The translations under genes and the position numbers were made by a program. The notes under the pieces were generated by a model. That model was not told the DNA's origin and did no database searches. It was given only the letters and a program-made list of their open reading frames with translations. DNA of 64,000 nt from Shigella phage Sf16: the sequence record MF158043; one strand, given 5' to 3'. Shown piece by piece: positions 18,843-19,917 of this stretch (position 1 is the stretch's first letter; every line of letters begins with the position of its first letter).

Positions 18843-18919
18843 GCACCTATAGCCCAACTGGAAGAGGCAGCAGACTTAGAATCTGCTCAGTGTGAGTTCG
18901 AATCTCTCTAGGTGTACCA
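18843..18919 (+). tRNA. tRNA with anticodon UAG (Leu codon family) but class I body
   Basis: Anticodon stem AGCAGA/TCTGCT; loop CTTAGAA; only 5-nt variable loop. Confidence 0.55.
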
Positions 18920-18926
18920 AATTAAT

Positions 18927-18995
18927 GCAGGTGTAGCAAAATGGTTATGCGGCTGACTCTTAATCAGTAAGACGATGGGTTCAATTCCCTCCACC
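18927..18995 (+). tRNA. tRNA-Lys (CUU), atypical T-stem
   Basis: Paralog of 17218-17293; loop CTCTTAA; same A.C/U.U T-stem mismatches. Confidence 0.55.
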
Positions 18996-19001
18996 TGTAC
19001 C

Positions 19002-19077
19002 AAACAATGGGGATGTAGTTTACATGGTTAAAACATAAGTTTTGCAAACTTAAGTACAGGGTTCAATTCCCTGCTTC
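19002..19077 (+). tRNA. tRNA-Ala (UGC)
   Basis: D-stem GTTT/AAAC; anticodon stem TAAGT/ACTTA; loop TTTGCAA. Confidence 0.65.
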
Positions 19078-19086
19078 TCCACCAAT

Positions 19087-19165
19087 TAGTGCATCCATAG
19101 TTTAAACGGGAAAATTACAGTCTTCCAAACTGAGGTTGAGGGTTCGATTCCCTCTGGATGCTCCA
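19087..19165 (+). tRNA. tRNA-Gly (UCC)
   Basis: Acceptor GCATCCA/TGGATGC; loop CTTCCAA; T-arm GAGGG-TTCGATT-CCCTC. Confidence 0.65.
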
Positions 19166-19171
19166 AATAAT

Positions 19172-19247
19172 GCTCTTATCGTATAATTGGCTATTACGGT
19201 TGCCTTGTAAGCAACTTATCAGGGTTCGAATCCTTGTGGGAGCACCA
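19172..19247 (+). tRNA. tRNA-Thr (UGU)
   Basis: Anticodon stem GTTGC/GCAAC; loop CTTGTAA; encoded CCA. Confidence 0.65.
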
Positions 19248-19342
19248 ATTTTGAGGTCAAGTGAAAGACCGCTTGAGTCAACTGAAGACCGTAACAAATT
19301 CCACGGAGTTGAGTTAGCGGCACAGCTTCAGACCTCTTCAAA
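19248..19342 (+). ncRNA. structured spacer with GAAGACCG motif
   Basis: Outer stem GAGGTC/GACCTC; inner hairpin TCAACT/AGTTGA; shares GAAGACCGT with the repeat family. Confidence 0.3.
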
Positions 19343-19416
19343 GCTCGCTTAGTTTATATGGTAAAGCCCCATCCTTACAAGTTGGTGAAGAAGGTTCAAG
19401 TCCTTCAGCGAGTACC
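19343..19416 (+). tRNA. tRNA-Val (UAC)
   Basis: Acceptor GCTCGCT/AGCGAGT; loop CTTACAA; T-arm GAAGG-TTCAAGT-CCTTC. Confidence 0.6.
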
Positions 19417-19417
19417 A

Positions 19418-19495
19418 AGTTCCAGTATCCCAATTGGCAGAGGATGCAAGCTCAAACCTTGTATTAGTGACGGTTCGAATCCGTCTTGGAACACC
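19418..19495 (+). tRNA. tRNA with anticodon CAA (Leu codon) but class I body
   Basis: Acceptor GTTCCAG/TTGGAAC; loop CTCAAAC; ~6-nt variable loop. Confidence 0.5.
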
Positions 19496-19512
19496 AATTT
19501 TAGGAGATTCCT

Positions 19513-19725
19513 ATGAAGCCTTATGGTAGACATGGTAAAGTTGAAATTGCAAGTTGTGGCTGCTGTGCAGCACATGATGGTGAAGAAGATTATTACAAAT
19601 GGCGTACAGACCATCGTAAACGCTTTCTCAGAAGAGATAAGAAGAGAGCTAGACAGGAATCTCAAAAGGATATTGCAGAATTAGTTCAAATGGACAGAGC
19701 AGCAACCTACGAAGTTGTTAGTTAG
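19513..19725 (+). CDS. small basic protein; 3' end overlaps tRNA-Arg
   Basis: AGGAG RBS 7 nt upstream; last ~17 codons lie inside tRNA-Arg(ACG). Confidence 0.35.
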   Translation: MKPYGRHGKVEIASCGCCAAHDGEEDYYKWRTDHRKRFLRRDKKRARQESQKDIAELVQMDRAATYEVVS

Positions 19726-19751
19726 GGGTTCGAATCCTCTATTCTGCACCA
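19675..19751 (+). tRNA. tRNA-Arg (ACG)
   Basis: Acceptor GCAGAAT/ATTCTGC; D-stem GTTC/GAGC; loop CTACGAA. Confidence 0.7.
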
Positions 19752-19758
19752 AATTTAA

Positions 19759-19835
19759 TAGGGGATTAGTTTACAAGGTTAAAACCTCGGTCTTTGAAAT
19801 CGAAGAAGATGGTTCAATTCCATCATCCCCCGCCA
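19759..19835 (+). tRNA. tRNA-Gln (UUG)
   Basis: Loop CTTTGAA; T-arm GATGG-TTCAATT-CCATC; A1.C72 mismatch. Confidence 0.55.
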
Positions 19836-19837
19836 AT

Positions 19838-19917
19838 GCTCCATTACTCCAATTGGCAGAGAGGCCAGATTTAAAATCTGTGTTATGTATCGGTTCGAAT
19901 CCGATATGGAGTACCAA
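19838..19917 (+). tRNA. tRNA with anticodon UAA (Leu codon) but class I body
   Basis: Acceptor GCTCCAT/ATGGAGT; loop TTTAAAA; ~8-nt variable loop. Confidence 0.5.

Follow-up and report, generated by a model that had tools for sequence, protein, structure and literature searches.

The window that we analysed, a 64,000-nt stretch of the Shigella phage Sf16 record MF158043, comes from a Mooglevirus phage (Ounavirinae) and shares 98.7% identity with Shigella phage Sf14 across the 1.8 kb that were compared. Within it lies an array of 26 tRNA genes (16042..21116), all on the plus strand, of which 25 are called by ARAGORN at default settings; the other, a class II tRNA-Tyr(GUA) of 88 nt with a 3-bp variable arm (16597..16684, plus strand), was recovered by ARAGORN at a relaxed threshold and from the Sf14 annotation, and has a weak Rfam match at 16599-16679 (22.8 bits). 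ARAGORN also places two class II serine tRNAs in the array, tRNA-Ser(UGA) (18500..18589, plus strand; 90 nt, with a 20-nt variable region) and tRNA-Ser(GCU) (20942..21034, plus strand; 93 nt, with a 21-nt variable region). Twenty-eight nucleotides upstream of the first tRNA sits a near-consensus sigma-70-type promoter-like site (15985..16014, plus strand; TTGACA-18-TATAGT with TG, 11 of 12 matches), which on its sequence is a likely start of array transcription; promoter-like sites in the region as a whole are no more numerous than expected from shuffling. A gene for a DUF2828/DUF7788 'RNA-binding protein' adjoins the array on its upstream side.

The array includes three genes with leucine anticodons, already annotated as tRNA-Leu in the Sf14 record, which ARAGORN calls as class I tRNAs on the plus strand. 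The first, tRNA-Leu(UAG) (18843..18919; 77 nt; Rfam tRNA score 54.5 bits), is 100% identical to an annotated Sf14 tRNA-Leu and combines a G1.U72 pair with A73, an encoded CCA, the D region GCCC-AACUGGAAG-AGGC, the anticodon loop CUUAGAA (A37) and a T stem with one U50.U64 mismatch. In the second, tRNA-Leu(CAA) (19419..19496; 78 nt; 44.0 bits), a G1-C72 pair, A73 and encoded CCA accompany the D region UCCC-AAUUGGCAG-AGGA and the anticodon loop CUCAAAC. The third, tRNA-Leu(UAA) (19838..19916; 79 nt; 46.9 bits), again has G1.U72, A73 and encoded CCA, with the D region CUCC-AAUUGGCAG-AGAG, an anticodon loop, UUUAAAA, equal to that of the host, and a C27.U43 mismatch atop the anticodon stem. All three belong to the tRNA family RF00005, with E-values from 5e-10 to 4e-7, scores above the gathering score of 29, model positions 1-71 covered and full-length ARAGORN cloverleaves.

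A class II tRNA has a variable region longer than about 10 nt that forms a stem-loop; the parsed cloverleaves leave the three phage genes with variable loops of 5 nt (UCAGU, in the UAG gene), 6 nt (AUUAGU, CAA) and 7 nt (GUUAUGU, UAA). The 5-7 nt that separate the anticodon stem from the T stem leave no room for an arm, and energy-minimised folds show no extra arm either, which rules out a long-armed alternative. Nor is the anticodon misplaced, since its position is the same in the ARAGORN and Rfam calls and in the tRNAscan-SE annotation of the near-identical Sf14 record. Folded singly, the sequences have energies that do not stand out (z = -0.3 to -2.1), which is normal for tRNAs. The class I structure of the three genes is real. 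This bears out a first-pass annotation that had described three leucine-anticodon tRNAs lacking the long variable arm, with one coordinate pair (UAG) exact and the other two off by one base relative to ARAGORN, and with ranges of 77-80 nt and 5-8 nt for lengths and loops that narrow here to 77, 78 and 79 nt and to 5, 6 and 7 nt. Its further statement that the island lacks a class II tRNA-Leu also stands: none was found over 15500-21600 by ARAGORN or by Rfam at E<=1, and the weak extra tRNA-like matches are the tRNA-Tyr (16599-16679) and a T-arm-like remnant (16948-17022), not a hidden class II tRNA-Leu.

Leucine identity in E. coli is read by leucyl-tRNA synthetase (LeuRS) from A73, the A15-U48 pair, G18G19 and A20a, with neither anticodon nor arm used; arm sequence and folding are uncorrelated with leucylation, and minimal variants without the arm remain active (PMC9976931). 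Each of the three phage genes carries U8, A14, A15, G18G19, A20a, U48 and A73. The Levitt pair is A15:U48, where G15:C48 is usual; A15/U48 also occurs in the tRNA-Asp and tRNA-Gln(CUG) of the array, so that this pair is necessary but not sufficient for the leucine type. The D regions, of the form NNCC-AAYUGGNAG-AGNN, run to 17 nt, the length found in E. coli leuW, leuX and leuZ (GCGA/GUGG-AAUYGGUAG-ACRC), and can be aligned with these gap-free and in register; they have a three-pair stem, positions 13/22 unpaired and G18G19 in the leucine-specific position. The G1.U72 pair of two of the three genes is found in leuZ too. What is absent from the E. coli-type set is the long variable arm. Isotype scoring, which the first-pass annotation had proposed as a check, agrees with the anticodons: ARAGORN calls leucine for all three, and published tRNAscan-SE 2.0 isotype scores rank leucine top for each of the Sf14 copies (67.4, 49.1 and 60.2; PMC12482277), of which the UAG copy is 100% identical to that of the window.

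To place these genes among known tRNAs, we scanned viral contigs with a pattern composed of the D-arm motif, class I spacing and the T loop, in which neither A73 nor U48 was imposed. Matches occur in at least 120 viral contigs, near copies of the window's CAA and UAA genes among them (L036 and L058), and 119 of the 132 bear one of the six leucine anticodons, all six of which are represented. Among these 119, A73 is present in every member and U48 in 118. Members were accepted through ARAGORN, which demands a cloverleaf, yet 127 of the 132 raw pattern matches were called as tRNAs; in the 98 family members that are free of gaps, 98.0% of the acceptor, anticodon and T-stem cells are paired (59% after shuffling), and most stem positions show 4-6 standard pair types, the mark of compensatory change. 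With a leucine anticodon, A73, the CC-AAYUGGNAG-AG motif and a variable loop of 5-7 nt that ends in U48, the three genes of the window are members of a very large class I tRNA-Leu family.

The family extends to cells, where 81 of 122 matches to the pattern bear leucine anticodons, and in Actinomycetes the type is the normal chromosomal form of some tRNA-Leu isoacceptors (our scan; Fan et al. 2019, PMC6614811). At the viral loci that carry it, long arms are kept in serine (66 of 69) and tyrosine (36 of 37) tRNAs. A sample anchored on a generic T arm, and so not selected for leucine, gave 15 short against 7 long tRNA-Leu genes (22 genes in 16 loci), with long arms in 17 of 17 tyrosine and 22 of 28 serine tRNAs, which suggests that phages commonly encode tRNA-Leu in the short-armed form, perhaps in the majority of cases. 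The tRNA-Tyr of the array, its arm intact, is an internal contrast, the phage retaining the arm where the synthetase needs it, and the two long-armed tRNA-Ser genes serve as further contrasts of this kind. Of the three possibilities that the first-pass annotation had left for these genes, the first, unusual leucine tRNAs, is therefore supported as to leucine, on the identity set and isotype scores, and as to unusual holds only by the standard of the enterobacterial host and the textbook rule; among phages the three are ordinary, if under-described as a type. Full-text searches turned up no paper that comments on phage class I tRNA-Leu: the Sf14 tRNA paper does not contain the word 'variable' (PMC12482277), and the sole open-access discussion of bacterial type I tRNA-Leu that we found treats it as a Streptomyces rarity (PMC6614811).

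Taken together, these features make it very probable, as far as sequence can tell, that the three genes encode functional, leucine-accepting class I elongator tRNAs. They would be transcribed within the 26-tRNA array and processed by host enzymes, then charged by the LeuRS of Shigella or E. coli, which would recognise A73 and the form of the elbow between the D and T arms (U8-A14, A15:U48, G18G19 placement and A20a). Some features count against this: the U50.U64 mismatch of Leu(UAG) and the C27.U43 mismatch of Leu(UAA), and, in the anticodon loops, A37 of Leu(UAG) in place of the host's G37 and C38 of Leu(CAA), on account of which host modification may act differently on these loops. No aminoacyl-tRNA synthetase was found among the nine open reading frames of at least 450 aa in this 64-kb part of a genome of about 88 kb, their products being terminase, portal, tape measure, baseplate, tail fibre, DNA polymerase, primase-helicase, DUF3383 and DUF2828/DUF7788 proteins; a phage-encoded LeuRS is ruled out among them. 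The missing arm would be no defect but a lineage trait of a class I tRNA-Leu family that circulates in phages and resides in actinomycete chromosomes.

Once charged, the three tRNAs would decode UUA and UUG, UUG, and CUA (with other CUN codons by wobble), in an AT-rich phage in which UUA and CUA are more frequent than in the host. TTA (24.9%), TTG (16.6%) and CTA (10.4%) together make up about 52% of the leucine codons in the open reading frames of the window. In the Sf14 study, the phage significantly exceeded its host in TTA and CTA use and did not differ from it in TTG use (PMC12482277); codon compensation therefore does not explain all three genes.

A further reading, which adds to leucine decoding by these tRNAs and does not replace it, is that the missing arm and the changed anticodon loops are adaptations and not a neutral lineage trait: arm-less leucine tRNAs might go unseen by effectors or decay pathways that read the class II arm or shape, or that cut host-type anticodon loops, so that leucine decoding goes on while host tRNA-Leu is disabled. 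Phages could carry such tRNAs because LeuRS, alone of the three class II synthetases, can dispense with the arm. Consistent with this reading, there are signs that the abortive-infection toxin AbiEii favours class II tRNAs (preprint 10.64898/2026.01.19.700257), and Leu(UAG) and Leu(CAA) depart from the host at anticodon-loop positions 32, 37 and 38 (PMC12482277). A37 replaces G37 in 34 of the 52 CUN-reading members of the family. A firewall study, moreover, reports a code based on a viral tRNA-Leu that stayed phage-proof while one based on a cellular tRNA was overcome. Against it, the same phages retain the serine and tyrosine arms, although MenT3-type enzymes target tRNA-Ser, and Actinomycetes carry the arm-less type on their chromosomes as an ordinary gene, so that the trait need not stem from phage-host conflict. 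T4 and T5 thrive with class II tRNA-Leu, and we know of no effector in Shigella or E. coli that is aimed at the tRNA-Leu arm. On balance we think an adaptive loss of the arm unlikely. Were it correct, class I tRNA-Leu would be a widespread, unrecognised anti-defence device that keeps leucine, among the commonest amino acids, decodable during abortive-infection responses, and it would explain why swapped codes built on viral tRNA-Leu hold up better than those built on cellular tRNAs.

Two readings that deny these tRNAs a part in leucine decoding had been put forward by the first-pass annotation, and neither found support. As uncharged decoys or regulatory tRNA-like RNAs, they would absorb anticodon nucleases, bind a phage Ro-like protein or serve some other purpose outside translation; the gene directly upstream of the array encodes a DUF2828/DUF7788 'RNA-binding protein', and phage tRNAs are known to counter tRNA-targeting defences (PMC10264068; PMC11555353). 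Yet CCA is encoded in all three genes, and the anticodons match codons that the phage uses heavily, in a family that spans all six leucine anticodons. The constancy of A73 and U48 across that family, along with the full elbow set, fits selection for leucylation, which a decoy would not need, and a related phage tRNA-Leu, apparently of class I, functions in E. coli translation; we hold the decoy reading to be very improbable. Charging with another amino acid, such that UUA, UUG and CUA would be misread, is scarcely plausible. The class I shape does serve 17 other amino acids, and Leu(UAG) has isotype scores for Ile2 (65.7) and Lys (63.4) close to its 67.4 for leucine (PMC12482277); leucine is nonetheless the top isotype for all three. 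By rules taken from a review (PMC9976931) and established knowledge, the identity elements of other synthetases are absent, there being no G3.U70 (Ala), long arm (Ser), U35 (Tyr, Lys, Gln) or extra 5' G (His), and most other synthetases read the anticodon, which here fits none of them. The leucine-type D arm and A73 go with leucine anticodons in the 119 of 132 viral matches noted above, and recoding three sense codons that account for about half of the leucine positions would harm every phage protein.

The genes are conserved far better than their flanks across about 250 Ounavirinae genomes: tRNA-Leu(CAA) reaches at least 99% identity in 159 phage records and tRNA-Leu(UAA) at least 95% in 248, whereas for the surrounding 1.8 kb just one record attains 99% or more and 154 lie at 80-90%. 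Two of the three genes have stem mismatches, and in the relative FG1m a chimera of Leu(CAA) and Leu(UAA) is plainly disrupted, as would be expected of pseudogenes, that is, of former class II leucine genes that lost the arm by deletion and have ceased to function, but this conservation, the strong covariation across the family and the three class I leucine genes of the distant Erwinia phage phiEa104, whose acceptor stems differ in sequence from the window's and still pair, make that idea implausible in the extreme.

For the window alone, the finding of functional leucine tRNAs has little import, the genes being annotated as tRNA-Leu in Sf14 and relatives. Its wider interest is that short-armed tRNA-Leu occurs also in phages of Enterobacteria, whose LeuRS is described as specific for class II. 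For annotators, it means that isotype models trained on class II tRNA-Leu score the class I type low; it should also be of use to those who study recognition by LeuRS and to engineers who already employ viral tRNA-Leu in recoded E. coli.

The host counterparts leuW (UAG), leuX (CAA) and leuZ (UAA), with variable regions of 13-15 nt, follow the rule invoked by the first-pass annotation that bacterial tRNA-Leu is normally class II. They share with the phage genes their anticodons, A73, U48 and the 17-nt D region, the D arms being alike in detail (a three-pair stem, 13/22 unpaired, A14 A15 Y16/Y17 G18 G19 N20 A20a G21); they differ in having long arms, G/A13 and, in leuW, G37, where the phage genes have 5-7 nt loops, C13, A37 in Leu(UAG) and changes at C32/C38. 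Coliphages T4 and T5 likewise carry tRNA-Leu in a tRNA cluster, but of class II: the T4 gene, correctly so classed by the first-pass annotation, is annotated at 87 nt, and T5 tRNA-Leu(UAG) measures 85 nt with a 13-nt variable region. The T5 gene is thus ruled out as a biochemical precedent, and the old charging work on T5 has no bearing here. [quoted passage not shown]

Closer parallels lie in Actinomycetes. The type I tRNA-Leu(CAA) of S. coelicolor and actinomycete class I tRNA-Leu share A73 and U8-A14 with the phage genes and have a 5-nt variable loop (PMC6614811), and the D region of a Mycobacterium tRNA-Leu(CAA), UCCC-AACUGGCAG-AGGA, is one base away from that of the window's Leu(CAA). Leucylation of the actinomycete type by a bacterial LeuRS has been shown (PMC6614811). 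The S. coelicolor gene, however, is chromosomal, in a host of high GC content; ScoLeuRS, the enzyme of that host, is adapted in its leucine-specific domain and does not use A73 as an identity element (PMC6614811). The S. coelicolor tRNA has C48, where the phage tRNAs have U48 and need charging by an enterobacterial LeuRS. The only bacterial class I tRNA-Leu to have been assayed in vitro with the E. coli enzyme, a transcript of S. coelicolor tRNA-Leu(CAA), remained uncharged, and the same authors describe that enzyme as charging type II only (PMC6614811). That failure may not carry over to the phage tRNAs, because the S. coelicolor tRNA has C48 and not the U48 for which E. coli LeuRS selects.

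The nearest functional parallel comes from coliphage OSYSP (MF402939.1), in which ARAGORN finds only two tRNA-Leu genes genome-wide, both 77-nt class I with A73 and U48. They share A14, A15, G18G19, A20a, U48, A73 and an encoded CCA with the genes of the window and have a 5-nt loop, although they belong to a different class I subtype (D stem AUGG...ACAU, U21) and to a T5-like siphovirus. The OSYSP tRNA-Leu has been used in the 'swapped genetic code' strains of E. coli (Nyerges et al. 2023; PMC13596443), where the swapped-code tRNA appears, from its accession number, to have a class I body; its missing arm is not remarked on in PMC13596443 or in a commentary on the work. With its anticodon swapped, OSYSP tRNA-Leu(CGA) causes TCG codons to be translated as leucine in E. 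coli (Hu et al. 2026 preprint, PMC13596443), as evidenced by leucine-dependent cat and asd genes and by LC-MS/MS.

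The three leucine-anticodon genes of the window's tRNA array do lack the long variable arm, as the first-pass annotation had reported. ARAGORN calls tRNA-Leu(UAG) at 18843-18919 (+; 77 nt; Rfam tRNA model 54.5 bits), tRNA-Leu(CAA) at 19419-19496 (+; 78 nt; 44.0 bits) and tRNA-Leu(UAA) at 19838-19916 (+; 79 nt; 46.9 bits); the Rfam model spans each gene end to end (gathering score 29), and the variable regions, parsed from the ARAGORN cloverleaves, are UCAGU, AUUAGU and GUUAUGU, of 5, 6 and 7 nt. Default ARAGORN finds 25 tRNAs within 16042-21116, every one on the + strand, and a relaxed threshold recovers a tRNA-Tyr(GUA) absent from the default output (16597-16684, +; 88 nt, class II with a 3-bp variable arm, Rfam 22.8 bits only), so that the array numbers 26, with only Trp missing among the isotypes. 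Long arms are kept in Ser(UGA) (20 nt), Ser(GCU) (21 nt) and Tyr(GUA); neither ARAGORN nor Rfam detects a class II Leu gene in the window's tRNA island, which agrees with the earlier reading, as does the class II form of T4 tRNA-Leu (87 nt), shared by phage T5 tRNA-Leu(UAG) (85 nt, 13-nt variable region). On these checks the original observation is therefore correct, bar its coordinates for the CAA and UAA genes, each of which slips by one base from the ARAGORN call; those of the UAG gene stand. The first tRNA of the array is preceded, at a distance of 28 nt, by a near-consensus promoter-like site (TTGACA-18-TATAGT with TG), and a terminator-like hairpin lies downstream of the last.

Identity of E. 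coli leucyl-tRNA synthetase (LeuRS) substrates resides in A73, the A15-U48 Levitt pair, G18G19 and A20a; the anticodon and long arm are not needed, and tRNA-Leu variants without anticodon and variable arms are still active with the enzyme (PMC9976931). All three window tRNAs carry U8, A14, A15, G18G19, A20a, U48 and A73 with an encoded CCA, and thus retain everything that LeuRS is known to read. Their 17-nt D region, NNCC-AAYUGGNAG-AGNN (three D-stem pairs and an unpaired 13/22), aligns gap-free with those of E. coli leuW, leuX and leuZ, whose variable regions are 13-15 nt rather than 5-7 nt; G1.U72, present in two of the three, also occurs in leuZ. Isotype scoring of the copies in Shigella phage Sf14 by tRNAscan-SE 2.0 places Leu first for all three (67.4, 49.1 and 60.2) and lists them as 'consistent', in a paper that leaves the missing arm unmentioned (PMC12482277); the Sf14 and window UAG genes are 100% identical. 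Charging with another amino acid, raised at first pass on seeing the armless bodies, is unlikely; a search of the three tRNAs for determinants of another synthetase revealed no G3.U70, no U35 and no extra 5' G.

We then consider how well the genes are maintained. The 1.8 kb around them shares 99.5% identity with Shigella phage ESh20 and 98.7% with Sf14 (Ounavirinae, Mooglevirus), and matches 316 phage records, mainly Felixounavirus and Mooglevirus phages of Escherichia, Salmonella, Shigella and Citrobacter; the Sf14 RefSeq record annotates the three counterparts (tRNAscan-SE) as tRNA-Leu TAG, CAA and TAA, of 77, 78 and 79 nt, in a 26-tRNA array. Conservation is much higher in the Leu genes than around them: identity of at least 99% holds in 159 records for the CAA gene but in one for the 1.8-kb region, which is 80-90% identical in 154. 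In Erwinia phage phiEa104 (Kolesnikvirus), three Leu genes (CAA, AAG, UAA) are of class I, with acceptor stems that differ in sequence from the window's and preserve pairing, and the UAG slot of Salmonella phage FG1m holds another class I subtype. Within Ounavirinae the class I Leu trait is old and maintained, and that the window's genes are pseudogenes, armless through decay, is unlikely. FG1m also contains a chimera (3999-4076 of that locus) that starts as the 5' portion of tRNA-Leu(CAA) and switches inside the T arm to the 3' portion of tRNA-Leu(UAA), with an acceptor stem that no longer pairs; recombination between identical T loops appears to have removed the genes in between.

BLAST with single Leu genes finds short tRNA-Leu genes in unrelated phages: three in Mycobacterium phage LRRHood (74-76 nt), two in Streptomyces phage Jay2Jay (75-76 nt), and copies of 78 and 80 nt in Cronobacter phage CR9 alongside long-armed Tyr and Ser, all with a D arm, variable loop (NCAGU) and T arm nearly identical to those of window Leu(UAG). 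Scanning IMG/VR with CCAAYTGGNAGAG-N27-33-GTTCGAATC, which combines the D-arm motif, class I spacing and T loop, returned at least 120 loci; among the matches listed, with tRNAs classified by ARAGORN in this and the other scans, 119 of 132 are tRNAs with Leu anticodons (UAG 38, CAA 33, UAA 30, CAG 8, GAG 8, AAG 2). A73 is present in 119/119 of these and U48 in 118/119, neither being set by the pattern. Across 98 gap-free, non-identical listed members, 98.0% of acceptor, anticodon and T-stem positions pair (59% when shuffled), with four to six pair types at most pairs; at the listed loci, 66 of 69 Ser and 36 of 37 Tyr tRNAs have long arms. A less biased viral scan, anchored on a generic T arm and CCA (at least 120 loci; anchoring tRNA left out), gave 15 short and 7 long neighbouring tRNA-Leu among the matches listed, a ratio resting on a small sample of 22 genes; A73 and U48 occur in every one of the 15 short genes, and the other listed isotypes are 17/17 long for Tyr, 22/28 long for Ser and 277/281 short for the rest. 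Clearly, short-armed Leu is not rare in phages. Within one genus of T5-like phages, class I and class II tRNA-Leu have taken each other's place: tRNA-Ser(UGA) and tRNA-Ala flank a class II tRNA-Leu(UAG) of 85 nt in T5 (11625-11709 of its locus) and a class I tRNA-Leu(UAG) of 77 nt in phage OSYSP (3693-3769 of its locus).

The same D-arm/T-loop pattern matched at least 120 loci in the GTDB species set, those listed including 81 Leu (79 with A73) and 36 Trp, the latter in a different register with G73. Among the listed Leu matches, 54 are lone chromosomal genes, mostly of Actinomycetes (Mycobacterium, Nocardia, Pseudonocardia and Amycolatopsis among the genera), and others belong to dense tRNA arrays (7-34 genes per 8 kb) of assorted metagenome-assembled genomes. 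One of the lone genes, a conserved Mycobacterium tRNA-Leu(CAA), has a D arm one base off that of window Leu(CAA). The lone actinomycete genes agree with the report that S. coelicolor type I tRNA-Leu(CAA) is charged by its own LeuRS (PMC6614811).

Leucine codons in 64 window ORFs (16,405 codons) are TTA 24.9%, CTT 27.6%, TTG 16.6%, CTG 15.1%, CTA 10.4% and CTC 5.4%, so that the three anticodons directly serve about half of the phage's leucine codons. In Sf14, TTA and CTA are significantly higher than in the host and TTG does not differ (PMC12482277); the usual codon-supply role fits two of the three tRNAs. That they are instead uncharged decoys, the remaining first-pass suggestion, is likewise unlikely. 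Window Leu(UAG) has C32, A37 and A38 (anticodon loop 18876-18882) where the host has U32, G37 and U38, host G37 being the m1G37 site of TrmD; Leu(CAA) differs from the host at C32 and C38. A37 is commoner than G37 among CUN-reading class I phage tRNA-Leu (34 of 52 at the viral loci listed), which fits the proposal that phage tRNAs evade host anticodon-loop-directed enzymes. MenT3, and probably AbiEii, are toxins that recognize class II tRNAs via the long arm, making an anti-defence advantage from arm loss conceivable.

Several other elements accompany the array. Directly upstream, a 471-aa ORF (14461-15876, +) contains DUF2828 and DUF7788, and its annotation in Sf14 and FG1m reads 'RNA-binding protein'; an annotated Ro protein adjoins the Jay2Jay array (1254-2903 of that locus), and the window has a weak Rfam match to YrlA (Y RNA-like) at 20052-20175 (21.6 bits against a gathering score of 69), a phage Ro/Y-RNA-type module tied to tRNA arrays being possible. 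Inter-tRNA spacer repeats (~16203-16285, 16372-16448, 16855-16935 and 16940-17070, +; ACAGAAGACC...GGTCTGGT, ends able to pair), one with a T arm resembling that of a tRNA (Rfam tRNA 30 bits, 16948-17022), could represent remnants of tRNAs or else small structured RNAs. Just past tRNA-Ile, weak tmRNA-like Rfam matches at 17468-17709 (+; tmRNA_permuted 34.7 bits, gathering score 47; alpha_tmRNA 20.3), with a promoter-like TTGACA-17-TAAGAT at 17543-17571, possibly mark a tRNA-like stable RNA of the type annotated in T5. A 115-aa HNH-type endonuclease ORF (...HHLNP...CANCHRIRH; 17896-18243, +) sits within the array, in a region of insertions or deletions among relatives; T5 too has HNH genes among its tRNAs. 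Between tRNA-Leu(CAA) and tRNA-Arg(ACG), a 70-aa ORF (19513-19725, +) with an AGGAG ribosome-binding site encodes a product with a cysteine-rich N-terminus and basic middle, its 3' end overlapping the tRNA-Arg gene.

The three genes are very probably ordinary working class I leucine tRNAs, predicted substrates of host LeuRS, from a very large family shared by phages and actinomycetes. The window's large ORFs include no synthetase gene, and charging by host LeuRS would proceed via A73 and the elbow. GenBank already lists the genes themselves, and bacterial type I tRNA-Leu has been published; how common class I tRNA-Leu is in phages, coliphages included, is apparently unremarked in the searchable open literature, and contradicts a general statement of a current review. 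A 'swapped genetic code' E. coli uses a phage-derived tRNA-Leu from MF402939.1 (OSYSP), its anticodon changed to CGA, and reads TCG as leucine, on the evidence of cat and asd genes needing leucine at TCG and of LC-MS/MS (PMC13596443). By whole-genome ARAGORN, OSYSP has only two tRNA-Leu genes, each of 77 nt with a 5-nt variable loop and both with A14, A15, G18G19, A20a, U48 and A73; unless the body was re-engineered, an armless phage tRNA-Leu would thus be an in vivo substrate of E. coli LeuRS. The OSYSP subtype differs from the window's, and the result therefore supports, without proving, charging of the window tRNAs. An S. coelicolor type I tRNA-Leu(CAA) transcript was not leucylated by E. 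coli LeuRS, which was called type II-only (PMC6614811); that tRNA has C48, whereas U48, the base preferred by E. coli LeuRS, is found in the window tRNAs and in 118 of the 119 listed phage members.
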